Origin: Steroidobacteraceae bacterium
GTDB lineage: Bacteria; Pseudomonadota; Gammaproteobacteria; Steroidobacterales; Steroidobacteraceae
Assembly: GCA_050185195.1 (NCBI GenBank)
Contig: JBFWZQ010000014.1
Coordinates: forward strand, 3,002 to 67,001
Reading direction: 5' to 3'
DNA length: 64,000 nucleotides
Shown here: positions 30,001 to 62,956 of the stretch, piece by piece
How the letters are laid out: each line of letters begins with the position of its first letter
Numbering within the stretch: the first letter of the stretch is position 1
The notes under the pieces: generated by a model
Told to the model about the DNA's origin: nothing
Database searches by the model: none
The model's input: the letters and a program-made list of their open reading frames with translations, nothing else
Made by a program: the position numbers and the translations under genes

Positions 30001-30012
30001 GACACAGCAGCC

Positions 30013-30948: not shown

Positions 30949-35878
<4,930 letters not shown>

Positions 35879-35879
<1 letters not shown>

Positions 35880-36781
35880 CAGAAGTACCCTTCCTGTTTC
35901 TTGCGCTCCATCGAAGCCACCTGGTCGCGGTCGACCGCGCGCCCCTGCCGTTCGGCGCGGCGTGACAGCAGCATCTCGGTCGTCACGTCGGCGATGGAGG
36001 CGGCGCGGCTCTCGAGCGCACCGGAGAGCGGATAGCAGCCGAGCGTGCGAAAACGCACGCTGCGCCGCCGCGGCAGCTCACCCGGCAGCAGGCGCATGCG
36101 TTCGTCGTCGACGAGCAGCAACTGCCCACCGCGCTCCACCACCGGGCGCTCGGCGGCGAAATAGAGCGGCACGAGCGGAATCTCCTCGCGCGCGATGTAT
36201 TGCCAGATGTCGAGCTCGGTCCAGTTCGACAGCGGAAACACCCGCAGGCTCTCGCCGCGCTGCTTGCGCGCGTTGTAGAGCTGCCAGAGCTCCGGCCGCT
36301 GCGCGCGTGGATCCCAGCGGTGCTGCGCCGAGCGCACCGAGAAGACCCGCTCCTTGGCGCGCGAGACTTCCTCGTCACGCCGCGCGCCGCCGAACGCGGC
36401 ATCGAAGCCGTGCCGGTCGAGCGCGGCCTTGAGCGGCTCGGTCAGCATCTGCCGCGTGTATTCCGGCGTCGGCGTATCGAACGGGTTCACGCCGCGCTGC
36501 GCCGCTTCGCGGTTTTCGGCCACGATCAGCCGCAGGCCGTGTTCGCGCACCGTGCGGTCGCGGTGCTCGAGCATCGCGCGAAAGTCCCAGCCGGACGCCA
36601 CGTGCAGCAACGGAAAGGGCGGCGGCGCCGGGTAGAACGCCTTCAGGGCAAGGTGCAGCATCACCGAGCTGTCCTTGCCGATCGAGTAGAGGAGCACGGG
36701 ATTCTCGCACTCCGCGACGACCTCGCGGAAGATGAAGAGGCTTTCGGCCTCGAGCCGGTCGAGGTGCGTCAGGGTCGTCAT
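35879..36781 (-). CDS. cysD: Sulfate adenylyltransferase subunit 2
   Basis: 300-aa ORF. PP-loop [13 protein letters not shown]; C-terminus ...[10 protein letters not shown] typical of CysD. Confidence 0.9.
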
Positions 36782-36788
36782 GGCCTTC

Positions 36789-37562
36789 CTAGAAAGTGCT
36801 GAAGTCGCGGGCGAGCCGCAGCAGGCTCGTGGCGATCACGAGCACACCCACTGCGATCGTGAAGGGCCGCACCGACACGCGCCGCGCGAGCAGGGCCGCG
36901 AACGGCGCCGCGAGCAGCGCCCCGCACAGCAGCCCCAGCGCGATGCCGGAGAGTTTCTCGAACCCGACATGGGAGACGAGCAGTCCGAACACGGTCGCCG
37001 CGACGAAAGTCTCGGCAATCGCGCCGGTGCCGACGACATGCCGCGGATTCGCACCGAGCGCCACGAGATTGCTCGTGACGAGCGGTCCCCAGACGCCCGA
37101 CGTCGCCTCGAGCAGGCCGCCGGCGAAACCGACGCCAACCTGGGCCCGGCCCGACGCGCGGTTCGGCAGCGCATGCAGGGCGCGCCAGATGATGAAAGCG
37201 CCCGCGACGAGCAGGTAGAGGCTGATCGCGATGCCGATCCACTGCGAGAAGCTGCGTGTCAGCAGCGTCACGCCCGTCACGCCGCCGAGGATGCCCGCGA
37301 TCGACAGCACGACCAGCATGCGTGCGTCGACATTGCGCATCCAGACGTGCGAGAGGCCGGAGGCGGTGCCGGTGAAGAGCTTCGCGCCATTGACCGACGC
37401 GCTCGCGATCTCGCGCGGCACGCCGACCGCCGCGAGAGCCGCCGAGCTGATCGCGCCGAAGCCCATGCCGAGCGCGCCATCGAAGACCTGGGCCACGAAA
37501 CCCACGGCCGCAAACGCCCAGGTTTCAGGGCTCGACAGGATCGTGAGTACGGATTGCCACAT
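36789..37562 (-). CDS. TauE/SafE-family (DUF81) anion transporter-like membrane protein
   Basis: ORF 36789..37697 trimmed to [11 protein letters not shown]. Polytopic, with Gly-rich TM segments ([32 protein letters not shown]). Confidence 0.75.
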
Positions 37563-37672
37563 AGGGTCCGGGGAGCATGCCGTGGGGGAGAAGGCCGAAC
37601 GATACTTTTCGATTATGAGGGTATAGCCCTGAAATCGGCGACTCGGCGCGGCGTCGCCCGTAGGCTCGACCC
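37563..37672. promoter_or_regulatory. Divergent control region between tauE-cysD-cysNC and cysJIH-hem-cysG
   Basis: 110-bp spacer between divergent start codons. It contains the only A/T-rich patch nearby (cgatacttttcgattatgagggtatag), including a T-N11-A element (TACTTTTCGATTA) of the loose LysR/CysB-box type. Promoters are inferred, not demonstrated. Confidence 0.4.
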
Positions 37673-39505
37673 ATGTCCGCCGTCCCCGCCTTGCCACTGC
37701 TGCCCGCCGACGCGCAACCCCTGCCGGCGAGTCGCCTGCACCTGCTCACCGAGCTGACCCAGGGCCTCGACGCAGGCGCCCTGCTCTATGTGTCGGGATA
37801 TGCCGCCGGGCTCGCGGCGGCACAGCGCCAGGGCTACACGCCCGCCCACGCACCCGAGCGGATGCAGGACGCGCAGGGGGTGCGCGCCACCGTCCTCTAT
37901 GCCTCGCATACCGGCAACGGCCGCCGCATCGCCGAACGGCTCGTCGCGACACTCGAGACACGCGGCCTCGCCGCACGGGCCATTGCTGCAGGCGAGTACC
38001 CCAGTCGGGACCTCGCACAGGAACGCCTGCTGTATCTCGTCGCGAGCACGCACGGCGACGGAGACCCGCCGGACGGCGCGCGCCCGTTCTTCGACTTCCT
38101 GCTCGGCCGCAAGGCGCCACGCCTCGAGCAGCTGCACTATGCGGTGCTGGCACTCGGGGACTCGAGCTATCCGCAGTTCTGCGAAGCCGGCCGCGTGCTG
38201 GACGAGCGGCTCACTGCACTCGGGGCGACCGCGATCACGGCCCGAATCGACTGCGACCTCGATTACGAGGCCCGGGCGTCCGACTGGTCGGAGGCAGCGA
38301 TCCGGTTCGCGCTCGAGACCCTGAAACCCGTCGGCGATGCGCCCCGCCTCGCCATCGTCTCGCCACTGCGCGCCGCGACACACGCCGCGGCGCCGGCGAC
38401 CGCAACCCGCGACGCGCCGGTCGTGGTCGAAGTGCTGGCCCGCCAGCGCATCACCGGGCGCTCCAGCGATCATCCGGTGATGCACCTCGAGATCGCGGCG
38501 CCCGCGGACCTGCTCGCGTACGAACCGGGCGACGCCATGGGCGTCTGGCCTCGCAACCCGGATTTCCTCGCGGCGCGCATCGCGGAAGTGCTGAAGCTCG
38601 ACCTCGCCGCCACGGTTTCACACGCCGGCGCAGAACGATCGCTCGGCGACTGGCTCACGCAGCATCGGGAAATCACGCGCCTCTCGCGCCCGCTGCTCGA
38701 AGCGCACGCCGCGCGTTCCGGCGCGCCTGCGCTGCAGTCCCTCGTGAACGGGGATCAGCAGGCACGCGCCGCCGTCCTGCGCGACTGGCAGGTGCTCGAC
38801 CTGTTCGAGGCGTACGCGGCCGAATGGTCCGCCGAAGACCTCGTCGGCGCGCTGCGTCCGCTCGCGCCGCGCCTCTATTCGATTGCCTCGAGCCGCCGTG
38901 AAGTCGGCGACGAACTGCACCTCACGGTGGCCGCGGTCGACTATGAACGCGAGGGTGCGCGCCGCGTGGGCGCCGCGTCGTTCTTCCTCGGGTCGGATGC
39001 CCCCACGCTGCGCGCCTATGTCGAGCCGAACACGCATTTTCGCCTGCCGGCGGACCACGACCGCGACCTCATCCTGATCGGCGCGGGCACCGGCGTCGCG
39101 CCCTACCGCGGCTTCCTGCAGCAGCGCGCCGCCGATGGCGCCCGTGGTCGCCACTGGCTGCTCTTCGGGGCGCGGCGCTTCTCGAGCGACTTCCTCTACC
39201 AGGCCGAGTGGCTTGCGGCGCGCAAGCGCGGCCTGTTGCACCGGCTCGACCTCGCGGCCTCGCGCGACCAGGCGGAGAAGGTCTACGTGCAGCATCGCCT
39301 GCGCGAACAGGGTGCGGAACTATGGCGCTGGATCGAGGGCGGTGCGTCGGTCTATGTCTGCGGCGACGCGGCGCGCATGGCGCCCGACGTGCATGCGGCC
39401 CTCCTCGACGTGGCGCAGGTGCACGGCGGGCAAACGGACGATGCCGCGCAGGCCTACCTGAGCGAACTCGTCGCGGCGCGGCGCTACCTGCGGGACGTGT
39501 ACTGA
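37673..39505 (+). CDS. cysJ: Assimilatory sulfite reductase [NADPH] flavoprotein alpha-component
   Basis: Flavodoxin-like [10 protein letters not shown]; FAD motif RLYSIASS; NADPH motif [15 protein letters not shown]; C-terminus YLRDVY. Confidence 0.9.
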
Positions 39506-39506: not shown

Positions 39507-41180
39507 ATGGCAGACGCCCCCCTGTCTCCCGTGGAACACATCAAGGCGGCGAGCCGGCTGCTGCGCGGCACGCTCGCTGACAGCCTCGCGGATGCGCCCA
39601 CGGGCGCGCTCGCCGAGGACGACACGAACATCCTCAAGTTCCACGGCAGCTACCAGCAGGACGACCGCGACCTGCGCGAAGAGCGCCGCCTGCAGAAGCT
39701 CGAGCCGGCGTACAGCTTCATGATCCGTACGCGCCTGCCGGGCGGCGTGTGCACGCCCTCGCAGTGGCTCGCGCTCGACGCCATCGCGCGCGAGCACGGC
39801 AATGGCACGCTGCGACTCACGACGCGCCAGGCCTTCCAGGTCCATGGCGTCGTGAAGCGCGACCTCAAGGCGACCATGGCCGCGATCAACGCCACGCTGA
39901 TCGACACGATCGCCGCCTGCGGCGACGTGAACCGCAACGTGATCGCGAGCGCCAATCCGGTCGAATCCAGGCTGCACGCCGAGGCCCACGGCTGGGCGTC
40001 GAAGATCTCCGCGCACCTGCTGCCGCACACGCGCGCCTATCACGAGATCTGGCTCGGCGAGGAAAAAATCGCGGGCACGCCCGAGGTCGAGCCCATCTAC
40101 GGCGCGACCTACCTGCCGCGCAAATTCAAGATCGCGCTCGCGGTGCCTCCCGTCAACGACGTGGACGTCTTCGCGCACGACCTCGGCTTCATCGCCATCG
40201 TCGAGGACGGCGCGCAGGGCCCGCGTCTCGCGGGATTCAATGTCGCGGTTGGAGGCGGCCTCGGCGCGACGCACGGGGATGCGGCCACCTACCCGAAGCT
40301 CGCGCAGGTGATCGGCTTCGTCGCGCCCACGGACACGCTCGCGGTCACCGAAGCCGTGGTCACGACGCAGCGCGATTTCGGCGATCGCGCCAACCGCAAG
40401 CACGCGCGCCTCAAGTACACGCTCGAGACCCTGGGCGTGCAGGCCTTCGTCGCCGAAGTCGAGCGGCGCGCGGGGGTCCGTTTCGCGCCAGCACGCCCCT
40501 ATGTGTTCACGACGAACGGCGATCGCTTCGGGTGGACGCAAGGCTTCGATGGCCGCTGGCATCTCAACCTGCGCATTCCATCCGGCCGCATCGCCGACCG
40601 CGACAGCGCGCGCCAGCTCACCGGCCTGCGCGAAATCGCCCGGGTGCACCGCGGGGACTTGCGCCTCACGCCGAACCAGAACCTCATCATCGCGAACGTC
40701 GCCGCCGAAGATCGCGCGACGATCGACGCGCTCGTCGTCGACCACGGCCTCGACCTCTACACGCGCGCCTCGCCGACGACTCTCGACGCGCTCGCCTGCG
40801 TCGCGCTGCCCACCTGCCCGCTCGCGATGGCCGAGGCCGAGCGCTACCTGCCCGACTTCCTCGTGGCCTTCGAAGCGCGCCTCGCGCACCATGGCCTCGC
40901 GCAGGTGCCGGTGCTCGTGCGCATCTCCGGCTGCCCGAACGGCTGCTCACGGCCCTACCTCGCCGAGGTGGCGCTCGTAGGCAAGGCGCCGGGGCGCTAC
41001 AACCTGCACCTCGGCGGCAATGCCACCGGCGAGCGCCTGAATGTGATGTATCGCGAAAACCTGTCGGAGACCGCAATCTTCGAGGCGCTCGACCCGCTGC
41101 TATGGCAGTTCGCGAACGAACGCAAGCCCGACGAACGATTTGGAGACTTCCTGTGGCGCGCGAAGCTGCTGTCCGCGTGA
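39507..41180 (+). CDS. cysI: Assimilatory sulfite reductase hemoprotein beta-component (siroheme/[4Fe-4S])
   Basis: 557-aa ORF. Cluster/siroheme cysteines in [14 protein letters not shown] and [12 protein letters not shown]. Starts 1 nt after the cysJ stop. Confidence 0.9.
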
Positions 41181-41917
41181 CGACCGACCCCGTGGCGGCG
41201 CAAGTGGCGCAGGCGCGCGCCGGTGATGTGCAGGCGCTCGAGGCGTTGAATGCCGCGCTCGCGCCGCTGTCCGCCGCCGCGCGCATCGCGTTTGCCCTCG
41301 CGCGGCTGCCGGGCCGGCACGTACTCTCCTCGAGCTTCGGCGCACAGGCCGCCGTCGCGCTGCATCTCGCGACGCAGGTTTCGCCGGACCTGCCGGTCGT
41401 GCTCGTCGACACCGGCTATCTCTTCCCCGAGACCTATCGCTTCGTCGATGAACTGACGCTGCGCCTGAACCTGAACCTGCACATCGCGCACCCGGCGGTG
41501 TCCGCAGCCTGGATCGAGGCGCGCCACGGCAAGCTCTGGGAGAACGGCGTCGAGGGGCTCGACCAGTACGGCCGGCTCGCCAAGGTCGAGCCAATGCAGC
41601 GCAAGCTCGACGAACTCGGCGCGGGCACCTGGATTTCCGGGCTGCGCCGCGTGCAGTCGGCGAGCCGCGCGGCCGCGCCGTTCCTCGCCTTGCACGGCCA
41701 TCGCTTCAAGCTGCACCCGATCGCCGACTGGACCGATCGCGACGTGGGTCGTTACCTCAAGCAGCACGCGCTGCCGTATCACCCGCTATGGGAGAAGGGC
41801 TACGTGTCGATCGGCGACTGGCATACGACGCGTTCGCTTGCCGAAGCGGGCCACCTCGAAGGCACGCGCTTCTTCGGCCTGAAGCGCGAGTGCGGCCTGC
41901 ACGGGCTCGAGGGCTGA
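41177..41917 (+). CDS. cysH: Phosphoadenylyl-sulfate (PAPS) reductase, thioredoxin-dependent type
   Basis: Last 246 codons of ORF 39749..41917. GTG at 41177 overlaps the cysI stop (GTGA). The C-terminal KRECGLH is the only Cys, with no CC...CxxC Fe-S motif. That indicates the PAPS rather than APS type, consistent with the CysC domain on CysN. Confidence 0.85.
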
Positions 41918-41920: not shown

Positions 41921-43462
41921 ATGCCGACGTCCTTGCACGGGCCCCGCACCGTCACCATCGGCGCGCGCGCGAGTGCGCTGGCGCGGGTGCAGGCGCGGCT
42001 CGTCGGCGCCGCCCTTGCCGCGCAGGACCCGCGGATTGCCATTCGCTATGCCTTCGCGGACAGCGCTGGCGATCGCGAGCCGGGGGCCTCGCTGCCTGCG
42101 CTCCTGCGCGCGGGCGGCTTCACGAGTGAACTGTCAGAGGCGCTTTCCAGCTCGCACATCGACCTCGCCGTGCATTCCTGGAAGGACCTGCCGTTCGTGG
42201 AGTCGGCCACCACGCACGTCGCCGCGACCCTCGCGCGCGCCGATCCGCGTGACCTGCTGCTGGTGCGCCGCGACCGGCTCGCGCAGGGCCCCCTGCGCGC
42301 GCTGCGAGTACTGACCTGCTCGGCGCGGCGCGCTTTCAACCTGCGCGAGTTCCTCCCGTGGGCCCTGCCGGGTGGCGTGGAGCAGGTCCACTTTCATCCC
42401 GTGCGGGGCGATGTCCTGCGCCGCCTGCACCAACTGCTGACGGGAGACGCAGACGCCCTCGTCGTGGCCAAGGCGGCCATCGATCGGCTGATGGGCGACG
42501 GTGAGGCGGCTGCCGGCGCGCGTGCACAGGTGCGCACCGCACTCGAAGCCTGTCGTGTCATGGTGCTGCCGCTCACCGCGAACCCTGCGGCGCCCGCGCA
42601 AGGCGCGCTCGCCATCGAAGTGCGGCGCGATCGCAAGGACCTCGTCGAGGCCCTTGCCGCGATCAACCATGCGCCGACCTTTGCGCGGGTGACCGAGGAA
42701 CGCGCGCAGCTCGAGGCCACGCGTGACGAAGACCATCCGCTCGGCATCTCGATTGTGCCGCTCGACGGCGGCCCCGTATCGAGCGCAGCGGAAGCCCTGT
42801 TCCGGCGCGGCGCCTTGCAGGGCGTGCGCATCGACACCGCACATCTTCGCAACCGGGAGTCGCCGCTGCCCCGACCCGCACATCGCGAGGCGGTGTGGTC
42901 AGGAGCCGAATTGGAGCGCTTTGCCTTGCGTCGGCAGGCTCTCCCTGTCGACACCACGGCGTTTCTGGCGCCCGGCACGGGTCTGCTGGTCGCACGCGCG
43001 GACGCCCTGCCCGATGCCTCGCAACATCCGCACGAACAGGTGATCTGGACCGCCGGCCTCGACACCTGGCGCCGGCTCGCCGCGCGCGGCCTGTGGGTGA
43101 GCGGCAGCGACGAGAGCCTCGGCGAAACCGGAGCGCTCACCGCGCGGCACCTCTTTCCGCACGTCGATCGGTGGGTGAAGCTGACGCACGCGGCAGGCCA
43201 CGACACGCCGCACGCCACACGCGTTGCGACCTACCGGCTCGAACGCGTCGCGCCGCTCGCCGACATCCGCCCTCACACGCACTTCTTCTGGCGCAGCGGC
43301 TCGCAATTCCTCGAATACTTTCGCGCCAACGCCCGCCTGCGCGATGCCTGGCACGGCTGCGGCCCCGGCAACACCCTCGCGATCATCCGCTCGGTCATCG
43401 GGCCCGAACGCGTACGGCCGTTCCTTTCCGCCGGGCAGTTCCGCGCCGAGATGGGAGCCTGA
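41921..43462 (+). CDS. Fusion protein: HemC-like (hydroxymethylbilane synthase-like) N-terminal part + HemD-like (uroporphyrinogen-III synthase-like) C-terminal part
   Basis: N-terminal strings TIGARASALARVQA, IDLAVHSWKDLP, ADPRD, CSARR, VRGDV, AQGALAIEVR and VTEERA align by eye with E. coli HemC landmarks. The C-terminal ~200 aa (…FFWRSGSQFLEYF…GCGPGNTLAIIRSVIG) resemble the weakly conserved HemD pattern. The HemD call is tentative. Confidence 0.6.
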   Translation: MPTSLHGPRTVTIGARASALARVQARLVGAALAAQDPRIAIRYAFADSAGDREPGASLPALLRAGGFTSELSEALSSSHIDLAVHSWKDLPFVESATTHVAATLARADPRDLLLVRRDRLAQGPLRALRVLTCSARRAFNLREFLPWALPGGVEQVHFHPVRGDVLRRLHQLLTGDADALVVAKAAIDRLMGDGEAAAGARAQVRTALEACRVMVLPLTANPAAPAQGALAIEVRRDRKDLVEALAAINHAPTFARVTEERAQLEATRDEDHPLGISIVPLDGGPVSSAAEALFRRGALQGVRIDTAHLRNRESPLPRPAHREAVWSGAELERFALRRQALPVDTTAFLAPGTGLLVARADALPDASQHPHEQVIWTAGLDTWRRLAARGLWVSGSDESLGETGALTARHLFPHVDRWVKLTHAAGHDTPHATRVATYRLERVAPLADIRPHTHFFWRSGSQFLEYFRANARLRDAWHGCGPGNTLAIIRSVIGPERVRPFLSAGQFRAEMGA

Positions 43463-43466: not shown

Positions 43467-44480
43467 ATGCTGGACCGGGTCGCACCCATTGCGTCGCTGC
43501 GCGACACTGTCGCGCCACCCCGCCGCCTGCAGCGCCTGCGTCGCACGGCAGCGCTGCGCGACCTCGTCGCCGAAACTTCTTTCACGCACAGCCAGTTGAT
43601 CCAGCCCCTCTTCATCGTCGAGGACGACGCCGACGCGGGCCCGATCGCAGGCCTGCCCGGCAATGAGCGCCTGTCGCGCAACAGTGCGCTGGCGCAACTC
43701 GATGCCGATCTCGACGCGGGCGTGCGCCAGTTCCTCCTCTTTCCAGTGCCCGCTCGCAAGCACGAGCGCCACTTCGACCCCCACTTCATCTGCGAGACCC
43801 TCGCCACCCTGAAGCGTCGAACCGGCCGGGATGCCAGCCTGTGGCTCGACACCTGCCTGTGCAGCTACACCGCCGACGGACACTGCTGCCTGCACGATGC
43901 GCACGGCGAACAGGACCTGCCCGCGACCCTCGATGCGCTCGCTGAACTCGCGCTCGCCTATGCCCATGCCGGCGCCGATGGCATTGCGCCGAGCGACATG
44001 AACGACGGTCGCGTCGCGGCGCTGCGCCTCGCGCTCGATGCCGCCGGCCACGACCTCGTGCCCATCATGAGCTACAGCGCAAAGTTCGCGAGCCAGCTCT
44101 ACGGTCCCTTCCGCGGCGCCGCCCATTCGGCGCCCACGCACGGCGACCGGCGCAGCTACCAGATCGACGTGCGCTCCCGTCGCGACGCGATTGCCAGTTC
44201 GCAGCGCTGCGCCGCCGAGGGCGCCGATCTCCTGATGGTGAAACCCGGCATGAGCTCGCTCGATCTCATCCGCCCGATCGCGCAGGCCACGGGACTCGCG
44301 GTGGGCGCCTACCAGGTGAGCGGCGAATACGCCGCGCTCGCCCTGCTCGCGCGCGAAGGTTTCCTGGACTTCGATGCGGCGCTACTCGAGAGCTGGTTCG
44401 CACTGCGCCGGGGTGGCGCGGCGTTCGTCATCACCTACGGCGCGCGGCTCGGCCGCACGCTCGGCCTCGCGGCGAGGTAG
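43467..44480 (+). CDS. hemB: Porphobilinogen synthase (5-aminolevulinate dehydratase), Zn-cysteine type
   Basis: Last 337 codons of ORF 43224..44480. Zn site DTCLCSYTADGHCC. Active-site lysines in SYSAKFAS and LMVKPG. Confidence 0.9.
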   Translation: MLDRVAPIASLRDTVAPPRRLQRLRRTAALRDLVAETSFTHSQLIQPLFIVEDDADAGPIAGLPGNERLSRNSALAQLDADLDAGVRQFLLFPVPARKHERHFDPHFICETLATLKRRTGRDASLWLDTCLCSYTADGHCCLHDAHGEQDLPATLDALAELALAYAHAGADGIAPSDMNDGRVAALRLALDAAGHDLVPIMSYSAKFASQLYGPFRGAAHSAPTHGDRRSYQIDVRSRRDAIASSQRCAAEGADLLMVKPGMSSLDLIRPIAQATGLAVGAYQVSGEYAALALLAREGFLDFDAALLESWFALRRGGAAFVITYGARLGRTLGLAAR

Positions 44481-44485: not shown

Positions 44486-45694
44486 GTGTTCGACTACGAA
44501 GGGTTCTTCGAAAGCGCCAAAGCAAGGCTCAAGCGTGAGCACCACTACCGCGTGTTCCGCGAGTTGCGCCGGGCGCCGGGGCGCTTCCCACAGGCCGAAT
44601 GGCGCGCCGCCGACGGCGGGTGGCGACCCGTCACCGTCTGGTGCAGCAACGACTACCTCGGCATGAGCCAGCATCCGGCGGTGCTTCATGCCGCGCTGCA
44701 GGCGCTCGACCGCTACGGGGCGGGCGCAGGAGGCACCCGCAACATCTCCGGCACCATCGACCTGCTCGTCGCACTCGAGCGCGAGCTCGCCGGCTGGCAC
44801 GCCAAGGATGCGGCCCTGTTGTTCTCGTCGGGCTACGTCGCCAACGACACGACGCTTGCCACGCTCGCGCGCGCGCTGCCGGACGGTGTCGTATTCTCCG
44901 ACGCCGCGAACCACGCCTCCATGATCCAGGGCATCCGCGCGAGCCGGCAGCGGTGCAGCGTGTTTCGCCACAACGACGCGGCGCATCTCGACGCACTGCT
45001 CGCCGCGCACGACCCGGCCGCACCGAAGCTCGTCGCGTTCGAATCGCTCTACTCCATGGACGGCGACATCGCGCCACTTGTCGACCTGCTGGCCGTCGCA
45101 AAACACCACGGCGCCCTCACCTACGTCGATGAAACGCATGCGGTCGGCGTGCACGGGCCGCAAGGGGGCGGGTTGCTCGAAGCGCACGGCCTCCTCGACG
45201 CCGTCGACATCGTGCAGGGCGGGCTCGGCAAGGGCGTGGGCGTCGTGGGCGGCTTCATCACCGGCGCCGCCCCGATCATCGACTACGTGCGCAGCCACGC
45301 GCCGGGCTTCATCTTCACGACCGCGCTGCCGCCCCACGTCGCGGCCGCTGCGCTCGCTTCGGTTCGTCACCTCAAGGCGAGCAATGCCGAACGCGCCGCG
45401 CTTGAAGCGCGCGTGGCGAGCGTGCGCGCGGCGCTCACCGCGGCGGGCGTGCCGATTGCGCCGACCCGCAGCCAGATCCTGCCGCTGATCGTCGGCGACG
45501 CCGCGGCCTGCCACGCACTCGCAGACGACCTCCTCGAGGGGCACGGCATCTATCTGCAGGCCATCGTCCATCCCACCGTGCCCCGCGACGGCGCCCGCCT
45601 GCGCATCACACCTGGCCCGCTGCACGCCGACGCCGACCAGGCGCGGCTCGTTGCGGCGCTCGCGGACGCGTACGCGCGGCAACGCGCGGCCTGA
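44486..45694 (+). CDS. hemA: 5-aminolevulinate synthase (C4/Shemin pathway, alpha-oxoamine synthase family)
   Basis: GTG start. Long runs match remembered alphaproteobacterial ALAS: VWCSNDYLGMSQHPAVL, GAGAGGTRNISGT, FSSGYVANDTTL, NHASMIQGIRAS, VAFESLYSMDGD, YVDETHAVGVHGP, GGLGKGVGVVGGFI (PLP Lys), VRSHAPGFIFTTALPP, PTVPRDGARLRITPGPLH. Confidence 0.85.
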   Translation: MFDYEGFFESAKARLKREHHYRVFRELRRAPGRFPQAEWRAADGGWRPVTVWCSNDYLGMSQHPAVLHAALQALDRYGAGAGGTRNISGTIDLLVALERELAGWHAKDAALLFSSGYVANDTTLATLARALPDGVVFSDAANHASMIQGIRASRQRCSVFRHNDAAHLDALLAAHDPAAPKLVAFESLYSMDGDIAPLVDLLAVAKHHGALTYVDETHAVGVHGPQGGGLLEAHGLLDAVDIVQGGLGKGVGVVGGFITGAAPIIDYVRSHAPGFIFTTALPPHVAAAALASVRHLKASNAERAALEARVASVRAALTAAGVPIAPTRSQILPLIVGDAAACHALADDLLEGHGIYLQAIVHPTVPRDGARLRITPGPLHADADQARLVAALADAYARQRAA

Positions 45695-45701: not shown

Positions 45702-47132
45702 ATGCGCTACTTCCCGGTCTTCCTCGACCTGCAGGACCGCGACGTCCTCGTCGTCGGCGGCGGCACGGTGGCCCTGCGCAAGATCGAGACGCTGCGCTCG
45801 GCCGGTGCGCGCGTCACGGTCATTGCGGCGACCATTCACGAAGACCTGCAGCGCATCGCGGCGCAGGGCGCAATCCGGCTGGTCCAGCGCCGCTTCGAGG
45901 CCGCCGATATCGCTGGCCCCCACCTCCCGCGGCCGTGGCTGATCGTGGCGGCAACAGACGAACCCGCGGTCAACGCGACGACGGCGCGCGCCGCGCAAGC
46001 GGCCGGCATCGTGTGCAACGTCGTCGACGACCGCGAACTGTCGAGCGCGCTGATGCCCGCCATCATCGACCGCTCACCCGTGCAGATCGCTGTCTCGACA
46101 GGTGGCGCCTCGCCCGTGCTCGCGCGTCTCATCCGCGAACGCCTCGAGACACTCCTCGACGAGTCGCTCGGCCCGCTCGCGCGGTTCGCCGAACGCTGGC
46201 GCGCGAGCGCACGCAAGGTGCTCGCGAGTGCGGGTGCGCGGCGCCACTTCTTTTCGTGGCTTCTGACCGGGCCGGCCGCGAACGCCATCCAAGCCCGGCG
46301 CCAGGCTGATGCAGATCGAATCGCCACGCGCGAACTGGCGCGGCGCCAGCGTCTCACCGATAGCGCCGCGGCCGATCAGGGCGCCACCGGCCACGTGACG
46401 CTCGTCGGCGCAGGCCCCGGTGACCCCGGGCTGCTCACGCTCAAGGGACTGCGCGCACTGCAGGAAGCCGACGTCGTCATCCACGACCGCCTCGCGTCCG
46501 CCGAAGTGCTCGACCTCGCACGCCGCGACGCGGAGCGTATCGACGTCGGCAAACGCCCGGGTGCAGGCACGACACAGGAGGTCATCAACGCACGGATCGT
46601 CGAACATGCGCACCGCGGGCAGCGCGTGGTGCGCCTGAAGGGCGGCGACCCCTTCATCTTCGGCCGCGGCGGCGAAGAGATCGACACCCTGCGCGCGGCC
46701 GGCATTCCCTTCGATGTGGTGCCGGGCATCACCGCCGCCATCGCCGCGGGCGCCGCGGCCGCGATCCCGCTGACCGACCGGCGACATGTACACGCCGTGC
46801 GCCTGATCACGGGCAACGATCCCGCGGTCCTCGACGCGTTCGACTTCTCCGACGTCGCCGCCGGCCGCGAGACACTGGCGGTCTACATGGGCGTCGCGCA
46901 ACTGCCGGCGTTGCGCGCGCGCCTGCTGCGTGCGGGCGTTGCGCCGGATCTACCCGTCGCGCTGGTTGGGAATGCGAGCGGCGCGGGGCAGCGGGTCGTT
47001 GCGGCTACGGTGGAAAAGCTCGCATCCGCTGCCCGTTCACACGACGTTACGTCGCCTGCAATCTTGCTGGTGGGGACCGTTACGGCATCGGCTCGCGGTG
47101 GATCGGAGACCCACGTCTGCGTCGCAGTGTGA
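45702..47132 (+). CDS. cysG: Siroheme synthase (precorrin-2 dehydrogenase/sirohydrochlorin ferrochelatase + uroporphyrinogen-III C-methyltransferase)
   Basis: ORF 45651..47132 trimmed to MRYFPVFLDL. N-terminal NAD motif VVGGGTVALRKI; SUMT motifs LVGAGPGDPGLLTLKG and RLKGGDPFIFGRGGEE. Confidence 0.9.
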   Translation: MRYFPVFLDLQDRDVLVVGGGTVALRKIETLRSAGARVTVIAATIHEDLQRIAAQGAIRLVQRRFEAADIAGPHLPRPWLIVAATDEPAVNATTARAAQAAGIVCNVVDDRELSSALMPAIIDRSPVQIAVSTGGASPVLARLIRERLETLLDESLGPLARFAERWRASARKVLASAGARRHFFSWLLTGPAANAIQARRQADADRIATRELARRQRLTDSAAADQGATGHVTLVGAGPGDPGLLTLKGLRALQEADVVIHDRLASAEVLDLARRDAERIDVGKRPGAGTTQEVINARIVEHAHRGQRVVRLKGGDPFIFGRGGEEIDTLRAAGIPFDVVPGITAAIAAGAAAAIPLTDRRHVHAVRLITGNDPAVLDAFDFSDVAAGRETLAVYMGVAQLPALRARLLRAGVAPDLPVALVGNASGAGQRVVAATVEKLASAARSHDVTSPAILLVGTVTASARGGSETHVCVAV

Positions 47133-47644
47133 CAGGAAGATCGTCGAGTTGCCCGAACTGCTCGGTGAATCCCTGTGTACTTTCGGAGGCGATGGCGCCG
47201 TCCGGGCTTTCGTCATTGCCCCAGGAGAGGCGTGAATGTGCGGTCGCCTCGCGGTACTTGCCGAAGAACGCGATGGGCTCCGGGTTCCCGGCGAACACCC
47301 GTCGATACCCGCCCAGGACGCGAACGTCCATCTCGCATGAAAGCATGGCCAGGCCAGTTGCTTTCGGCACCCACCAACGCCTGAACAGCTCCGGCCACGA
47401 GCTCACGCCCGGACTTCCGCTCTGTCGTCGTGTCGTTCTGCATGGGGTAGGCTCGGTCGGGTTCTGAGCCATCCAGCAGCGCGCTGAGATGATCGTGCGA
47501 GGCATTCATGCGCGTATTCCTGATCGCTGCCCTCACGTTCGCCGGCAACCCCTTGACACGGTAGACCCGGCGCTGGAGCTCGCGCAGGCGGGGCAGTTCC
47601 TCGCACTCGTCGTCAATAACGAGGCAGGAACACACCGGCGGCAA
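47080..47644 (-). pseudogene. Possible frameshifted or decayed ORF of unknown family at the tail of the minus-strand operon
   Basis: Two overlapping minus-strand ORFs (47213..47644 and 47080..47505) each look protein-like over only half their length: ...RVYRVKGLPANVRAAIRNTRMNASHDHLSALLDG... and then ...WWVPKATGLAMLSCEMDVRVLGGYRRVFAGNPEPIAFFGKYREATAHSRLSWGNDESPDG... This is consistent with one gene broken near 47400. No family recognised. Confidence 0.25.
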
Positions 47645-47666
47645 ACGCGGCCACTGTCATGCCAAT

Positions 47667-48974
47667 CTAAGCGCGGACGATCGATCGAACGTCGACTACA
47701 TACATCTGCCTTTGGTGCTCGTGCACCGAGTCGATGCACACTTCATCGCCAGTCCGGCTCCAGCGGGGGTGCAGGTCGCAGCGGTTCACCTTGCCGAGCC
47801 TGGGGTCGGTGTAGAAACGACCGATGTCGTGTCGCCGCGCGGTGAGCGTGTCGAACAGGATCAGCAGGCGATGGTCGGTCTCGTCCGGATACGTATCCGA
47901 GAGAATCCAGCGCTTGTCAGGCGAATAGGTCATGTGCCCGTTCTCCGTGAGGCACTCGCGGCCGATGACCTCGACCTTGTCGCTGCGGTCGGTGTACAGG
48001 TGGTAGTGCGCTTCGTGCGCATGCGGCCCCCAGATCAACACGTGGTTGTCGTCACGCCAGGTGGGATGCGAGAGCTGATAAATCGACTTCTCGTAGTCGA
48101 AGATGCCCGCCTCCGTTCCAGCCGCAGCCGGGAGCGGCGCGAGGGGATGATCGCCGCATTCGAGCAGGGTGAGCTCGCTCCCGTCTGGGTTGACCGTGAA
48201 CAGGCGATGCAGCCAGCGCGTCTCATCGTCGAAGCACTCCGTCCAGCGATGCAGGAAGAGAAAGCGCTTCGAGCCCGGCGCAATTTCCAGATGCGTAACC
48301 CAGTGAAACGCGCGCTCCATCGAGGCGACCGGCTGAAACTCCCGCAGCTTGCGCAGGTCGACGATCAGTTCATGCACACCGGTCGCGATATCCATTCGCC
48401 GGATGCCTTCGTTCGACGGCGCCGGGTCGAGTGGAGCGTGAGCCGTATGTGGGAAATAGCCGATGGTCGGGTGAGCGAGCTGGAGCCGGTCGTAGTCGAT
48501 GCATAGCGCATATTCGCCGTTCGGCGCGACGACATAGACGGGCAGCGGCAGCGTTCGGCGCTCGCCGCTTTCCAGATCGGCCAACGTCGAGCCGAAATCG
48601 GGATAGGCGCCACCGGCAGCGAACGAACGGGTATTGAAGATCACGCTGGACCGCGTGTTCTCCAGCCATTGCAGCTGGCAGCCCATCTGAAAATTCCACG
48701 TCGTGGTTTCACCGAACGCCCGAAATGCCCCGCCCCGATCCAGGTCGAACACACCCACTTCGGCCGCGAAATGGATACCGAGCTGCCCCTGCATCGCATC
48801 GACCCGATGGGCAAGAAGCCGCCGCCCATCTGCGCTCCAGACCGGCTTGTTGTAATAGCCGAAGAAATGATGGGCGCTACCGTCGCCCAGTCGCACGACG
48901 GGACACTCCATCCACTGCGCCGGGGCGGCGACGGTGGCTGCGCTGTTCTGCTCCTGCATCTTGAACCTCATCAT
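47667..48974 (-). CDS. Cytoplasmic beta-propeller protein, TolB-like / PL22 oligogalacturonate-lyase-like
   Basis: 435-aa ORF with no signal peptide. HHFFGYYNKPVWSADGRRLL near the N-terminus and CDLHPRWSRTGDEVCIDSVHEHQRQMYVVDV at the C-terminus resemble the blade pattern remembered from PL22/TolB-type propellers. Confidence 0.5.
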   Translation of the reverse strand: MMRFKMQEQNSAATVAAPAQWMECPVVRLGDGSAHHFFGYYNKPVWSADGRRLLAHRVDAMQGQLGIHFAAEVGVFDLDRGGAFRAFGETTTWNFQMGCQLQWLENTRSSVIFNTRSFAAGGAYPDFGSTLADLESGERRTLPLPVYVVAPNGEYALCIDYDRLQLAHPTIGYFPHTAHAPLDPAPSNEGIRRMDIATGVHELIVDLRKLREFQPVASMERAFHWVTHLEIAPGSKRFLFLHRWTECFDDETRWLHRLFTVNPDGSELTLLECGDHPLAPLPAAAGTEAGIFDYEKSIYQLSHPTWRDDNHVLIWGPHAHEAHYHLYTDRSDKVEVIGRECLTENGHMTYSPDKRWILSDTYPDETDHRLLILFDTLTARRHDIGRFYTDPRLGKVNRCDLHPRWSRTGDEVCIDSVHEHQRQMYVVDVRSIVRA

Positions 48975-50467
48975 TTCCTGTTCGCGTCGATCGCGGCTGC
49001 GGCCATCGCCTTCGCCCGTGCGAGCACCGTATCGGTGGTGCCGAACCAGTCCGTCGGCACGGGCTCCATCGGAACATCCGGGGCAATGCCCACGGTGTCA
49101 TAGAGCTGCCCCGTTTTCTGGAAGGACGCCATGGTCGAGAGGTTGACCACGAGCTTGCTGTGCGGGAGCAGGAATTCCCGCCCGTGCCCGCTGCGCCCCA
49201 TGGTCGGCGTGCCGACCAGCGTTACATCGCGCCAATCCTTGAATGCCGACACGAAGATGTCGCCGGCACTGCCGATCCCCCAGTCGATCAGCACATAGAC
49301 GGGCCGGGAGTAGAAGCGCTTGAGCGGGTCCGCCCGCTGCGTCATGAAATACCAATCGGTGAACTTGCCCGCGGGGGGCGACCACACGGGCTGAAACGAG
49401 ACCGCAAACTGCCGGTAGGCCGCCGCTTCATCGGCGGGATTCTTCGGATTCTGCGCATAGAGCAGGCGTTTGTCCGGGCTGTCGAACACCGCGAGCGGAT
49501 CGAACGTCTTGTCGCCCTGCGGAATACGCACCTTGGCGACATTGAAGACATAGGGTGGAGAGCCCGGCGGCATGAAATAGGGGAACAGCGCATTCAGGAT
49601 TTCGCGCTTCCCGCCGCCCGATTGCCGGGCATCGATAATCAGCGCCTCGGTATTGCGAAACTCGCGCATCAGCCGGTCGATACTGTCCCGCAGCTCATCG
49701 CCCTCCTTGCCCCGGTGTGCGGCGACCCTGAGATAGCCGATGTTGCCGTCCAGGAGCCGGCTGTGCGCAGGCAGATTGAAGGGTTTCGTTGTCTCGTCAA
49801 GTGCTGTCGCAACGGGAAGCTTCAGGTGGATCGCACGTGCACCATCGGCCGACACCATCTCCAGCGCAATGTCCGGCCGGACCGGCAGCCCCATTTCGCC
49901 ACGCATGTAATTGATGTGGCGCATCAGCCGCACGCCGCGCGCAAAGCGTGCTGCCGCCGAGCTGAGTGGCCCCTGGCCAATATCCCCCGCAACCCGGAAC
50001 CACTCCTCGATGAGCACGCCATCGATCGATCGGACGAATGGAAAGTCGGCGTTCACGAATCCCGCGGGCGCGCCCGAGTAGAGAAAGTAGCGCTTGTCCG
50101 CTTTGCCGAACTGAAATGACGTGTACCCCGGCGGCACCCGTGCCGCCCAGTCGATCACTTGCGCATGATCGTCACCGAAAAGCCGGACGAGCTTGTTGAT
50201 TTGCGTCGATAGCCCGTTGACGGAGACCTTGTCGGGGAGCTTCGCCTGCATGCGCTCGATCGACTGCGCGAACGGAAACGTGACCGACCAGATGTACGAG
50301 CTGTTGCCACCGATGCACTCCTTCAGGACTTCCAGATCCGCCGCAGCCTCGGTCCGGCTGATGTACGTATCGTTGTCCTTTCGACCCAGATCGTTGCGCC
50401 CCAGATCCGCGTACACCACTGGCACGCCGCACAACGCCACGAGAGCCGGCCACATCAACGAGGTCAT
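48971..50467 (-). CDS. S41-family peptidase (tail-specific-protease-like), secreted
   Basis: ORF 48971..50566 trimmed to MTSLMWPALVALCGVPVVYA. Motifs LIIDARQSGGG and IDWGIGSAGDIFVSAFK (nucleophile Ser region). Confidence 0.7.
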   Translation of the reverse strand: MTSLMWPALVALCGVPVVYADLGRNDLGRKDNDTYISRTEAAADLEVLKECIGGNSSYIWSVTFPFAQSIERMQAKLPDKVSVNGLSTQINKLVRLFGDDHAQVIDWAARVPPGYTSFQFGKADKRYFLYSGAPAGFVNADFPFVRSIDGVLIEEWFRVAGDIGQGPLSSAAARFARGVRLMRHINYMRGEMGLPVRPDIALEMVSADGARAIHLKLPVATALDETTKPFNLPAHSRLLDGNIGYLRVAAHRGKEGDELRDSIDRLMREFRNTEALIIDARQSGGGKREILNALFPYFMPPGSPPYVFNVAKVRIPQGDKTFDPLAVFDSPDKRLLYAQNPKNPADEAAAYRQFAVSFQPVWSPPAGKFTDWYFMTQRADPLKRFYSRPVYVLIDWGIGSAGDIFVSAFKDWRDVTLVGTPTMGRSGHGREFLLPHSKLVVNLSTMASFQKTGQLYDTVGIAPDVPMEPVPTDWFGTTDTVLARAKAMAAAAIDANRK

Positions 50468-50481
50468 GGGTTGTCCTTCAC

Positions 50482-51216
50482 TCAATGGCTGATGATCTTC
50501 GAAAGAAAACGTTGCGCACGCTCCGAGCATGCGCTTGCGGGGCCGAAGAACCGCTCGCTCGCGCAATCATCGATGATCCGTCCGGCGTCCATGAAGATGA
50601 CCCGGTCCGAAACCTTGCGCGCGAATCCCATCTCGTGCGTCACGCATATCATCGTCATGCCGTCGCGGGCCAACTCGGTCATGACATCGAGCACTTCATT
50701 GACCATTTCCGGGTCCAGCGAGGACGTGGGCTCATCGAACAGCATATACGCAGGATCCATGCACAAGGCGCGTGCGATTGCCACGCGCTGCTGCTGGCCA
50801 CCGGAAAGCTGCCCGGGATGCTTCGTTGCGAACTTCCCCAGGCCGACCCGCTCCAGGTATCGCATGGCGCGCGCGTGCGCCTCCTCAGGCTTGCGCTTGA
50901 GCACCTTGACTTGCGCGAAGACCAGGTTGCGCAGAACCGTCATGTGCGGGAACAACTCAAAGTGCTGAAAGACCATGCCGACGCGCGCACGGATCGCCGG
51001 CAGCAATTTCGCCGGCCCCGGCATGGCCAGGTCGTCGATACGGATTCTCCCCTGCTGCATCGGTTCGAGCCCGTTGATGCATTTGATGAGTGTCGATTTC
51101 CCGGAGCCCGAAGGTCCGCAAACGACGACGACTTCGCCAGTCGCCACGTGCGTGGTGCAGTCGTAGAGAACCTGCGTAGATCCATACCACTTGGAGACGT
51201 TCTCTATGCTGATCAT
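50482..51216 (-). CDS. Polar amino acid ABC transporter ATP-binding protein (GltL/GlnQ-like)
   Basis: Walker A GPSGSGKST; signature LSGGQQQRVAIARAL; Walker B MLFDEPTSSLD. Confidence 0.9.
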   Translation of the reverse strand: MISIENVSKWYGSTQVLYDCTTHVATGEVVVVCGPSGSGKSTLIKCINGLEPMQQGRIRIDDLAMPGPAKLLPAIRARVGMVFQHFELFPHMTVLRNLVFAQVKVLKRKPEEAHARAMRYLERVGLGKFATKHPGQLSGGQQQRVAIARALCMDPAYMLFDEPTSSLDPEMVNEVLDVMTELARDGMTMICVTHEMGFARKVSDRVIFMDAGRIIDDCASERFFGPASACSERAQRFLSKIISH

Positions 51217-51893
51217 GTCAATACTTTCCTGCCCGACCAGTGCTCGACCAGCTTCGAGGCCGCGAAGCATAGAATGAAATATACGCCACCCGCGAACAGA
51301 TACAGCTCGACCAGCCGGCTGTCTCTTTGGCCGATCTTGGTCGCGGCACCGAGGAAATCGCTCACGCTGATGACATAGACCAGCGACGTGTCCTGGAAGA
51401 TGATGATTGCCTTGGTGAGTATCAGCGGCATCATGGCGCGAAATGCCTGCGGCAGAACGATGTAGCGCATTGCTTGGGCCCGCGTCATGCCGAGAGCGAG
51501 CGCCGCACTCCTCTGGCCCCGGCCGACACTGAGAATGCCGGCACGGATGACCTCGCAGAAGTAGGCGGCTTCGAACACCACATAGGCGATGAATGCCGAG
51601 TAATAGGGGCCGATCGGGGTGTATGTGCCCCGGACCGCTTCGATGAGCGTGGGCACCAGCAGGTAGAACCAGAAGATCGCGAGTACCAGGGGTATAGAGC
51701 GAAACAGCGTGACGTAGCCGCTCGCGAACGACGACACCCAGGTGTTCGTGGACAGGCGCATCAGGGCGAGGCCCGTCCCAAGCATGAGCCCGCCGATGAG
51801 CGAAGCGATCAGCAGCCCGAGCGAGAACGCCATGCCTTGCAACAGGAAAGGCATCGCGTCAGGCAGCACGCCCCAGTCGAACGCGTAGTTCAT
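51213..51893 (-). CDS. Amino acid ABC transporter permease (GltK-like)
   Basis: C-terminal 226 codons of ORF 51213..52538. EAA-like region AALALGMTRAQAMRYIVLPQA. ATGA overlaps at both ends. Confidence 0.85.
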   Translation of the reverse strand: MNYAFDWGVLPDAMPFLLQGMAFSLGLLIASLIGGLMLGTGLALMRLSTNTWVSSFASGYVTLFRSIPLVLAIFWFYLLVPTLIEAVRGTYTPIGPYYSAFIAYVVFEAAYFCEVIRAGILSVGRGQRSAALALGMTRAQAMRYIVLPQAFRAMMPLILTKAIIIFQDTSLVYVISVSDFLGAATKIGQRDSRLVELYLFAGGVYFILCFAASKLVEHWSGRKVLT

Positions 51894-52609
51894 CGCGCCA
51901 GCCGCGCTTCTATCGCGTGCATGAGCCGCGTCACCGCCTGCGCGATGAGAAAGTACAGCAGCGTCGCCACGATGAACGCCTCGAAAATGTGCCCGGTGAA
52001 TTCCCCGATCTGGCGGCTTTGCGCGGTGAGCTCCAGCAGGCCGATGGTCAATACCGCCGCGGAGTTCTTGAAGACGTTCAGGAACTCCGAAGTCAAAGGC
52101 GGCATGATGATGCGAAACGCCGTGGGCAAGAGCACGTAGCGATAAACCTGCCGGCGTTTCAGCCCGAGCGCGAGTCCGGCGCTGAACTGCCCGGCGGGCT
52201 GCGCTTCGATGCCCGCACGCACCTGCTCGCAAACCCGAGCCGCGGTGAAGAGACCGAGACAGAGGGTAGCGGTCGCGAACTGGACAAGCACCGGGTGCGC
52301 GCGATTGATCGCATCCTGAAGAGCGACCGGCAGAAACACCGGCGCGATGTAATACCAGAGCAACAGCTGCACCAGCAGCGGGACATTGCGGAAGAGTTCG
52401 ACATAGATGCCGACGGCGGCTCGCAGCGGCCGTAGCTGAAGCGTACGCGCAACTCCCAGCATCACGCCGAGCGCCAGTGCGATCATCCAGGCGAGCAGCG
52501 AGATCCCGACCGTCAGCCCCAGGCCGAACAGTATCCACTCGACGTAGCGGCCGCTGCCGGTGATCGTCGTCTCGAGGAACACGCCCCAGTTCCAGTCGTA
52601 GCTCATCAT
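51890..52609 (-). CDS. Amino acid ABC transporter permease (GltJ-like)
   Basis: 239-aa ORF. EAA-like region AGLALGLKRRQVYRYVLLPTA. Confidence 0.85.
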   Translation of the reverse strand: MMSYDWNWGVFLETTITGSGRYVEWILFGLGLTVGISLLAWMIALALGVMLGVARTLQLRPLRAAVGIYVELFRNVPLLVQLLLWYYIAPVFLPVALQDAINRAHPVLVQFATATLCLGLFTAARVCEQVRAGIEAQPAGQFSAGLALGLKRRQVYRYVLLPTAFRIIMPPLTSEFLNVFKNSAAVLTIGLLELTAQSRQIGEFTGHIFEAFIVATLLYFLIAQAVTRLMHAIEARLAR

Positions 52610-52610
52610 T

Positions 52611-53540: not shown

Positions 53541-53575
53541 CGCCTGCAATCGTACGCCAAGTCCGCGCAAAGACG

Positions 53576-56410: not shown

Positions 56411-56485
56411 ATCCAGCCCCCTCACTTGATCTCTGGTTGCTCGTGCGTGTATCCCGGATGCGCGATCCGCGGACGTGATGGCGAA

Positions 56486-59203: not shown

Positions 59204-59283
59204 ATTATTAGCGCAATCTGCTGCCTTTGGAGATACTAGCCCTGATAATTACGCCTGCATTCAAGTAAACGATTCCATATTGA
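59204..59283. promoter_or_regulatory. A/T-rich divergent control region between the M14/TBDR operon and the LacI-family gene
   Basis: One of the most A/T-rich stretches seen (attattagcgcaatctgctgcctttggagatactagccctgataattacgcctgcattcaagtaaacgattccatattga), lying between divergent start codons. Weak CG-centred half-palindrome GTAAACGATTCC at 59265-59276. Confidence 0.4.
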
Positions 59284-61643: not shown

Positions 61644-61666
61644 TCGCGATGACTGGAGGATCCCAC

Positions 61667-62930: not shown

Positions 62931-62956
62931 GCACGGCATCAACCACCGAGTACACC

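Follow-up and report, generated by a model that had tools for sequence, protein, structure and literature searches.

Tetrapyrrole synthesis is held to start universally on a dipyrromethane primer linked to a cysteine, which has been described for every characterized hydroxymethylbilane synthase (HMBS, HemC), from Escherichia coli to human. A fusion of HMBS with uroporphyrinogen-III synthase (UROS, HemD) is known from Leptospira interrogans, whose HemC/HemD protein is reported to be bifunctional with dual activity (Guegan et al. 2003, as cited in PMC8698207). Here we analyzed a stretch of 64,000 nucleotides from a Steroidobacteraceae bacterium (assembly GCA_050185195.1, contig JBFWZQ010000014.1, positions 3,002 to 67,001), hereafter called the window, which encodes a HemC-like/HemD-like fusion protein lacking the cysteine to which the cofactor is normally attached. 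Its gene, here designated hemCD, is embedded in the gene order cysJIH-hemCD-hemB-ALAS-cysG (ALAS, 5-aminolevulinate synthase) and belongs to a clade of cysteine-less fusions. Within the wider fusion family, the loss of the cysteine and a correlated acidification of the cofactor pocket are a clade-specific trait tied to siroheme synthesis. The members of this clade either build tetrapyrroles differently or are no longer deaminases.

Loss of the cofactor cysteine in a siroheme-linked clade

The original prediction for this gene had placed a number of E. coli HemC landmarks in the protein and had found no cysteine at the cofactor position. The landmarks hold up in alignment: R16, S18 and Q24 correspond to R11, S13 and Q19 of E. 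coli HemC, D89 in HSWKD to D84, SARR to R131/R132, VRGD to R149 and QGALAIE to Q198/G199, and the motifs ADPRD and ERA align as well. The absence of the cysteine was confirmed by a MAFFT alignment, in which EGGCQVPIG of E. coli HemC stands opposite RDEDH-PLG of the window protein and Asp271 (codon GAC, 42731-42733) takes the position of E. coli Cys242. Also as predicted, the protein contains exactly three cysteines (C133, C211 and C480), none of which lies within the cofactor loop or at the cofactor position.

In a genome scan that covered each species by one genome, 304 relatives were recovered and the best 80 loci kept; these share 30-75% identity with the window protein over its residues 10-511, and the locus counts used throughout (35 cysteine-less and 42 cysteine-bearing members) are drawn from them. 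No cysteine occurs at the position of E. coli C242 in any of the 35 genomes or the 120 protein clusters of the cysteine-less clade. Position 271 is Asp in 25, Glu in nine and Val in one of the 35 genomes, and hence acidic in 34, whereas the 42 others have Cys throughout. An acidic residue is also found at positions 269 and 270 in 34/35 cysteine-less genomes, and position 270 is Gly in 42/42 of the others. The resulting loops read GDEDH, GDDDT, GDDE or (S/C)GDVE. Position 164, where the canonical RGN motif has become RGD, is Asp in every cysteine-less member (35/35) and Asn in every cysteine-bearing one (42/42). The residues that replace the cysteine are thus conserved and not random. Taken together, the loop and the RGD substitution add four carboxylates of the protein (D164, D269, E270 and D271) to a pocket that normally accommodates the four of the cofactor. 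The acidic loop region is modeled with high confidence (predicted local distance difference test (pLDDT) score of 93-95 for residues 261-280).

Eight positions discriminate the two clades, each with at least 85% conservation within each clade, and five of these belong to the cofactor pocket or border on it. Given as cysteine-less versus cysteine-bearing residue, the latter five are position 66 (G vs V; E. coli L61, in the lid), 132 (S vs T; T127), 135 (A vs P; L130), 164 (D vs N; N151) and 269 (D vs G; G240). The others are position 179 elsewhere in domain 2 (A vs G; E. coli A166), and positions 466 (Y vs A) and 507 (F vs W) in the HemD-like part. His272 was considered as a replacement nucleophile and rejected, as it is present in 42/42 cysteine-bearing proteins but in only 23/35 cysteine-less ones. 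In one subclade, formed by locus L027 (10001-11497) and the proteins P0111, P0114 and P0118, the loop reads (C/S)GDVE-PVG, with the upstream Cys in L027 and Ser in the three other proteins. This could be a partial regain of a nucleophile or a different register of the loop.

A neighbor-joining tree with E. coli HemC as the root groups the cysteine-less sequences into a single clade and places the cysteine-bearing fusions as its sister, which indicates that the cysteine was lost once and in an old event. According to the tree, the loss occurred at the base of the clade and diversification followed; identities within the clade now range from 47 to 80%. The link to siroheme genes is complete. A cysG gene is adjacent in 33/35 cysteine-less loci, the contigs of the other two ending early, as compared to 0/42 cysteine-bearing loci. 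The order hemCD-hemB with cysG nearby is likewise kept in 33/35 cysteine-less loci, the remaining two being truncated. In one subclade (L006-L019), the operon contains no ALAS gene.

Conservation and predicted structure of the HemC-like half

Apart from the cofactor anchor, the HemC active site is complete. The catalytic and binding residues of the window protein are R16, S18, Q24, K88, D89, R106, R136, R137, R162, R168, R189, Q227 and G228, as judged against R11, S13, Q19, K83, D84, R101, S129, R131, R132, R149, R155, R176, Q198 and G199 of E. coli HemC. About half of them, including K88, D89, R162, R168 and Q227, are invariant in 35/35 cysteine-less and 42/42 cysteine-bearing members, and the remaining ones are kept in at least 33/35 cysteine-less and in 42/42 cysteine-bearing genomes. 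This conservation is seen although identity between the two clades in domains 1 and 2 is only 43%, and it indicates that the rest of the active site, the anchor aside, is under purifying selection. Mean pairwise identity inside the cysteine-less clade is 0.59 for domains 1 and 2 and 0.61 for the HemD-like domain; this gives no sign of decay, and the HemC half is not relaxed in comparison with the HemD half.

An AlphaFold2 model of the protein, built with 81 family members, reached a pLDDT of 93.4 and a predicted template modeling (TM) score of 0.93. In Foldseek searches the model aligned to HemC from E. coli, human, Arabidopsis, Bacillus and Vibrio over ~306 columns, and to the entire 296-residue chain of the E. 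coli enzyme (1PDA, 1AH5) with a target-normalized TM score of 0.79 and an E value of ~1e-22. The original prediction that most of domain 3 is missing needs to be revised in this light: the domain is reduced, but it is not mostly absent. The model retains its first helix (residues 251-262) and three strands (275-280, 291-299 and 302-310), and it is the canonical C-terminal helices that are absent, with a linker in their place.

Two of the three cysteines lie in this half. Cys211 opens a strand that follows an inserted helix (residues 195-209 in the model), ~15 residues ahead of the QG hinge. It is present in 35/35 cysteine-less genomes and in 119/120 clusters, and is also conserved in the cysteine-bearing Acidobacteriota. 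Cys133 aligns with E. coli Ser128, beside the cofactor-binding Ser129, and was found in only 10/35 cysteine-less genomes.

Sequence-based classification and authenticity of the gene

The only Pfam domain of the protein is PF01379 (Porphobil_deam; residues 11-241, E = 1.6e-41, 142.6 bits versus a cutoff of 22.1), and a scan at E ≤ 0.1 gave no match to Porphobil_deamC (PF03900) or HEM4 (PF02602). The NCBIfam model TIGR00212 (hemC) scored 144.3 bits, under its equivalog cutoff of 164, and covered profile positions 2-232 of 293. In a sequence search of the PDB, HemC structures alone were matched, over residues 11-264. Because it lacks the cofactor cysteine, scores under the HemC equivalog cutoff and shows no HemD signature in its sequence, the protein should be labeled HemC-like/HemD-like and should not be filed as a conventional member of the HemC or HemD family.

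The probability that the gene is decaying into a pseudogene, or that it stems from an error of sequencing or assembly, is close to nil. The protein is 100% identical to one from a metagenome-assembled genome of a Steroidobacteraceae (Gammaproteobacteria) member, and the same 513-residue sequence was recovered from at least three independent sequencing runs. The open reading frame (ORF) is intact, with a third-position GC content as high as in the neighboring genes, and the cysteine-less loop is strongly conserved and common to 120 clusters and 35 genomes.

A compact HemD-like domain recognized by its fold

The original prediction of a HemD-like C-terminal half stands as far as the fold and the operon context are concerned, but it is not borne out by any match to a HEM4 hidden Markov model (HMM). 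A separate model of residues 318-513 (pLDDT 87.6) retrieved UROS structures from the PDB as its top four Foldseek matches, with probabilities of 0.99-1.00 and TM scores of 0.5-0.6. These were 3RE1 (Pseudomonas syringae; E = 5.4e-6), 4ES6 (P. aeruginosa; 9.8e-5), 3P9Z (Helicobacter pylori; 3e-3) and 1WCX (Thermus thermophilus; 5e-3), and nothing comparable ranked below them. At the sequence level, Pfam scans of the whole protein and of 18 diverse C-terminal domains gave no HEM4 match, and a profile search of the PDB gave no match. An hhalign comparison with E. coli HemD reached a probability of only 0.1. A profile search of 5.8 billion proteins returned fragments of the same fusion family only and no PF02602 protein. 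The C-terminal domain is thus HemD-like by its predicted fold only, with no HEM4 signal in its sequence.

Invariant motifs of the domain are W..G..TW, GS.ESLGE, HFFW.SGS and H.CGPGNT. Cys480 (43358-43360) is part of the last of these and is present in ~95% of the whole fusion family. Many short database matches to the HemD-like domain which seem to stand alone are fragments. One apparent stand-alone HemD-like protein, P0282, was rejected as an independent hemD-like gene, being a frameshift-split hemCD from a long-read assembly, where the split fragments (L084:5139-7661) are accompanied by likewise split hemB and hemE.

Distribution of the fusion family and its cysteine-bearing members

A phmmer search of 1.84 billion representative sequences yielded 325 clusters (50% identity) at E ≤ 1e-30, nearly all of ~500 residues and full-length. 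The family comprises members from the Steroidobacteraceae, from Pyrinomonadaceae/Blastocatellia and other Acidobacteriota, from SAR86, from OCS116/Rhodobiaceae alphaproteobacteria and from Bdellovibrionales; its cysteine-bearing members are annotated only as ‘hydroxymethylbilane synthase’ or ‘hypothetical protein’. The cofactor loop reads GGGC(H) in 42/42 loci outside the Steroidobacteraceae, and among the 150 best representative clusters all readable loops outside the clade of the window protein are GGGC, except for one GGSC. The fusion architecture and the reduced domain 3 are therefore traits of the whole family and not the oddity of the window protein.

The gene neighborhoods of the cysteine-bearing members point to a role in heme synthesis. 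hemB lies directly downstream of the fusion gene in nearly all loci, and many Steroidobacteraceae, as well as SAR86 and the alphaproteobacteria, have ALAS adjoining it. Complete heme operons were found in a SAR86 locus (L076, 8633-15884; ALAS next to hemCD-hemB-hemE-hemH-hemF-hemG), in a Pyrinomonadaceae locus (L040, 9108-17783; gluTR-hemCD-hemB-hemL, a two-component pair, hemE-hemN) and in a third locus (L084, 3780-11044). In all three, the fusion is the sole candidate for both hemC and hemD, which argues that this architecture is a widespread housekeeping bifunctional enzyme missed by the HEM4 models. Since these models are blind to the C-terminal domain, automated annotation would call hemD missing in SAR86 and Pyrinomonadaceae. 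A module of ALAS, hemCD and hemB recurs in SAR86, OCS116/Rhodobiaceae and Steroidobacteraceae (the window; L020-L036, L053-L080), which suggests that it moves as a unit.

Proposed function and alternative explanations

We infer that the cysteine-less fusion has remained able to make uroporphyrinogen III from porphobilinogen for siroheme, by way of an anchor other than a thioether, and give this reading about an even chance. In favor of retained synthesis, this activity is just what the operon requires, and in heme operons it is supplied by the sister proteins; in addition, a scaffold that only binds would not need Asp89 and every arginine. The UROS fold predicted for the C-terminal domain supports a retained UROS role. 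As ALAS, HemB and CysG are all encoded, only the HMBS and UROS steps are left for the fusion, which has to supply the two of them if the operon is to combine sulfite reduction with the complete path from glycine and succinyl-CoA to siroheme. A monophyletic Steroidobacteraceae subfamily of the fusions was recruited into this assimilatory sulfate-reduction operon, which would by itself cover all steps to siroheme, the cofactor needed by its own CysI. In this subfamily, the acidic loop G/R-D-[E/D]-[D/E], with a carboxylate at the cysteine position, has taken the place of the Cys-S-dipyrromethane anchor, and RGD that of RGN. In what we regard as the most plausible chemistry, the first deaminated porphobilinogen (azafulvene) may be captured by, or held against, the carboxylate cluster at position 271, and a labile ester or a non-covalent/ionic primer would replace the permanent thioether-linked dipyrromethane. 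Four units would be added by the intact Asp89/arginine machinery. As a carboxylate would depart easily, the bilane would then be released and cyclized by the fused HemD-like domain, and uroporphyrinogen III would be handed to CysG. In its most specific form the proposal is tentative and, in our view, rather improbable as it stands: the protein would be a cofactor-free HMBS, in which the chain is started on or against an Asp/Glu carboxylate (as a pyrrolylmethyl ester or at an ionic primer site) and the finished bilane is passed as azafulvene straight into the fused cosynthase, with no free hydroxymethylbilane and none of the self-priming that every known HMBS requires.

Several points weigh against retained synthesis on a non-thioether anchor. 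We know of no HMBS that is carboxylate-anchored or primer-free, and the literature that we searched, outside which most subscription journals lie, contained no cysteine-less or carboxylate-anchored HMBS homologue. The protein scores under the TIGR00212 equivalog cutoff, and where Asp271 sits with respect to Asp89 and the arginines is deduced from the alignment. In the subclade of L027, P0111, P0114 and P0118, position 271 is Val and a Cys or Ser is found three residues upstream, so that a carboxylate at exactly position 271 is not universal. Canonical hemC and hemD genes elsewhere in these genomes, if present, could have let the deaminase activity lapse. The cysteine-linked dipyrromethane (on Cys242) is described as the elongation primer of every characterized HMBS (PMC7242693).

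The main alternative is a dead deaminase joined to a live cosynthase, which we consider unlikely, if still worth serious attention. Here the HemC half, for want of a primer, would have no polymerase activity and would serve as a scaffold that binds porphobilinogen or the bilane, its acidic loop mimicking the four carboxylates of dipyrromethane and stabilizing an apo-like fold, while the HemD-like half would cyclize hydroxymethylbilane from a separate housekeeping HemC and feed CysG. Besides the absence of the cysteine that all characterized HMBS need, the number of new acidic residues (D164, D269, E270 and D271) speaks for such mimicry, as it equals that of the cofactor carboxylates. The operon of L006-L019 contains no ALAS, so that 5-aminolevulinate has to come from a housekeeping pathway elsewhere, and housekeeping heme genes probably exist in those genomes. 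Cultured Steroidobacter species are absent from the best 80 loci, which hold all cysteine-less members, and this suggests that the family normally relies on canonical genes. It would also be odd for an aerobe to make its heme synthesis dependent on a sulfur-regulated operon, and a dead deaminase would be favored if these genomes hold a canonical hemC. Against this, a binding scaffold has no evident need to conserve Asp89 and every arginine across a deep clade, and relaxation is not seen in the HemC half as compared with the HemD half. For the pathway, it makes little sense to raise HemB and UROS but not HMBS, and a plain hemD would suffice.

A conventional mechanism with a relocated anchor has only a small probability. 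The dipyrromethane would then be carried by Cys211, in some members by Cys133, or in the L027 group by the upstream Cys/Ser. The near-perfect conservation of Cys211 in the cysteine-less clade, the location of Cys133 beside the cofactor-binding serine and the CGDVE loop of L027 fit this idea. However, Cys211 is equally conserved in Acidobacteriota that have the canonical cysteine, which makes a thioether moved to this residue unlikely and for which reason we rejected it as a specific compensation. Its place at the start of a strand, after the inserted helix and ~15 residues before the QG hinge, is a further point against it. Cys133 is restricted to 10/35 genomes, and the relatives of L027 have Ser, not Cys, upstream of the acidic residues. 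It is similarly improbable that the protein performs neither reaction and acts as a non-enzymatic sensor or chaperone of porphobilinogen or a tetrapyrrole, which would tune how much siroheme reaches sulfite reductase, whether through sequestration of intermediates, through contacts with CysG or CysI or in some other way. The score under the equivalog cutoff, the lack of a HEM4 signature in the sequence and the linkage to cys genes throughout the clade would agree with such a function. Yet the operon would then miss HMBS and UROS while encoding ALAS, HemB and CysG; moreover, the enzymatic slots of heme operons are clearly taken by members of the sister family, and the catalytic residues are conserved.

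Genomic context of the window

The genes of the cysJIH-hemCD-hemB-ALAS-cysG operon (Table 1) are tightly packed: neighboring genes are 3-8 nt apart, or the stop codon of one overlaps the start codon of the next. Between the cysH stop and the ATG of hemCD there are 3 nt, and the hemB ATG follows 4 nt after the hemCD stop. Together with the divergently oriented cysNC, cysD and TauE/SafE-family genes, the operon that begins with cysJ is one sulfate-assimilation locus. In tblastn searches with E. coli HemC and HemD, which covered the window and 10 kb on either side of each of the 80 loci, nothing but the fusion gene was found, and Pfam scans of the other window genes gave no further heme genes. 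The number of promoter and terminator matches in the operon was not above chance expectation. HemB of the operon has a cysteine-rich motif, DTCLCSYTADGHCC, which appears to be of the type found in zinc-dependent porphobilinogen synthases.

Beyond this locus, the window encodes an MprF-like protein and an efflux system of the resistance-nodulation-division (RND) type. Downstream of cysG (47500-64000), the GC content falls from ~0.70 to 0.61-0.66. The genes of this segment comprise an ORF with no Pfam match, an S41 peptidase, components of an amino-acid ABC (ATP-binding cassette) transporter, a TonB-dependent receptor and an M14 carboxypeptidase, and the segment may have been acquired.

Table 1 Features of the window and of the fusion protein (aa, residues of the 513-residue protein).
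Feature	Position	Strand	Basis or remark
MprF-like lysyl-phosphatidylglycerol synthase	21876-24482	-	
Three-gene RND efflux system (outer-membrane factor, membrane-fusion protein, AcrB-type pump)	28738-34059	+	Upstream of the sulfur locus
cysNC (fused cysN/cysC: GTPase and adenosine 5'-phosphosulfate (APS) kinase)	34047-35879	-	Pfam; divergent from cysJ
cysD	35879-36781	-	Pfam; divergent from cysJ
TauE/SafE-family membrane protein gene	36789-37697	-	Pfam; divergent from cysJ
cysJ, sulfite reductase flavoprotein	37673-39505	+	Pfam
cysI, siroheme-dependent sulfite reductase hemoprotein	39507-41180	+	Pfam
cysH, 3'-phosphoadenosine 5'-phosphosulfate (PAPS)/APS reductase	41177-41917	+	Pfam; start overlaps cysI stop
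hemCD, HemC-like and HemD-like fusion, 513 aa, member of the cysteine-less clade	41921-43462	+	ORF call, PF01379
HemC domains 1 and 2, aa 9-250, full catalytic/binding set	41945-42670	+	PF01379, alignment, Foldseek
Asp164, RGN (E. coli N151) changed to RGD	42410-42412	+	Alignment
Cys211	42551-42553	+	Present in 35/35 cysteine-less genomes
HemC domain 3 in reduced form (a helix and three strands), aa 251-310	42671-42850	+	AlphaFold model, Foldseek, alignment
Acidic loop R268-D269-E270-D271-H272-P273, replacing the cofactor loop GGGC(H/Q)	42722-42739	+	Alignment
Linker, aa 311-335, weakly conserved	42851-42925	+	AlphaFold model, conservation profile
Compact HemD-like domain, aa 336-513	42926-43459	+	Separate model, Foldseek
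hemB, porphobilinogen synthase	43467-44480	+	Pfam, NCBIfam
ALAS, 5-aminolevulinate synthase (C4 pathway)	44486-45694	+	TIGR01821, 541 bits vs cutoff 339
cysG, trifunctional siroheme synthase	45702-47132	+	NF007922, 534 bits
ORF with no Pfam match	47667-48974	-	

Significance and comparison with known systems

If the cysteine-less clade is active, it would represent a second way to start and release a bilane; if it is inactive, it would offer a clean natural pseudo-deaminase that mimics the cofactor and is coupled to a cosynthase. The cysteine-bearing compact family, on the other hand, explains the apparently missing hemD of SAR86, of marine alphaproteobacteria of the OCS116 group and of Acidobacteriota. 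In the literature searched we found no description of a compact HemC-HemD family, nor of a sulfate-assimilation operon with its own pathway from glycine and succinyl-CoA to siroheme, including a gammaproteobacterial ALAS.

The window operon shares cysJ, cysI, cysH and a trifunctional cysG, each with the typical domains, with the cysJIH and cysG genes of enterobacteria. It differs from them by the addition of the entire upstream path (ALAS, HemB and the fusion) and by having ALAS, an enzyme of the C4 pathway, in a gammaproteobacterium. With E. coli HemC (1PDA, 1AH5), the fusion has in common the PF01379 domains, all catalytic and carboxylate-binding residues and the overall three-domain fold. 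In contrast to the E. coli enzyme, it has an Asp within an acidic loop in place of C242 and RGD in place of RGN, its active-site lid is three residues shorter and its domain 2 carries two insertions, while domain 3 is devoid of the terminal helices and 200 further residues are fused at the C-terminus. This additional part matches HemD (3RE1, 4ES6, 3P9Z, 1WCX) in the fold of residues 318-513, but with ~180-196 versus ~250 residues it is ~25% shorter, shares 13-15% identity and gives no HMM, profile or hhalign signal.

The Leptospira fusion resembles the window protein in carrying HMBS and UROS parts on one polypeptide. Its two parts are complete conventional enzymes of the kind that HMMs recognize, whereas the window protein has no Porphobil_deamC or HEM4 match and no cofactor cysteine. 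The closest relatives are the cysteine-bearing fusions, which are 30-45% identical over the full length and share the reduced domain 3, the H.CGPGNT domain, the adjacency to hemB and often that to ALAS. They keep the cofactor cysteine and RGN, whereas the clade of the window protein has GD[ED][DE] and RGD, and they are located in heme operons with hemE, hemH, hemF/N and hemG, in none of the 42 loci beside cysG.

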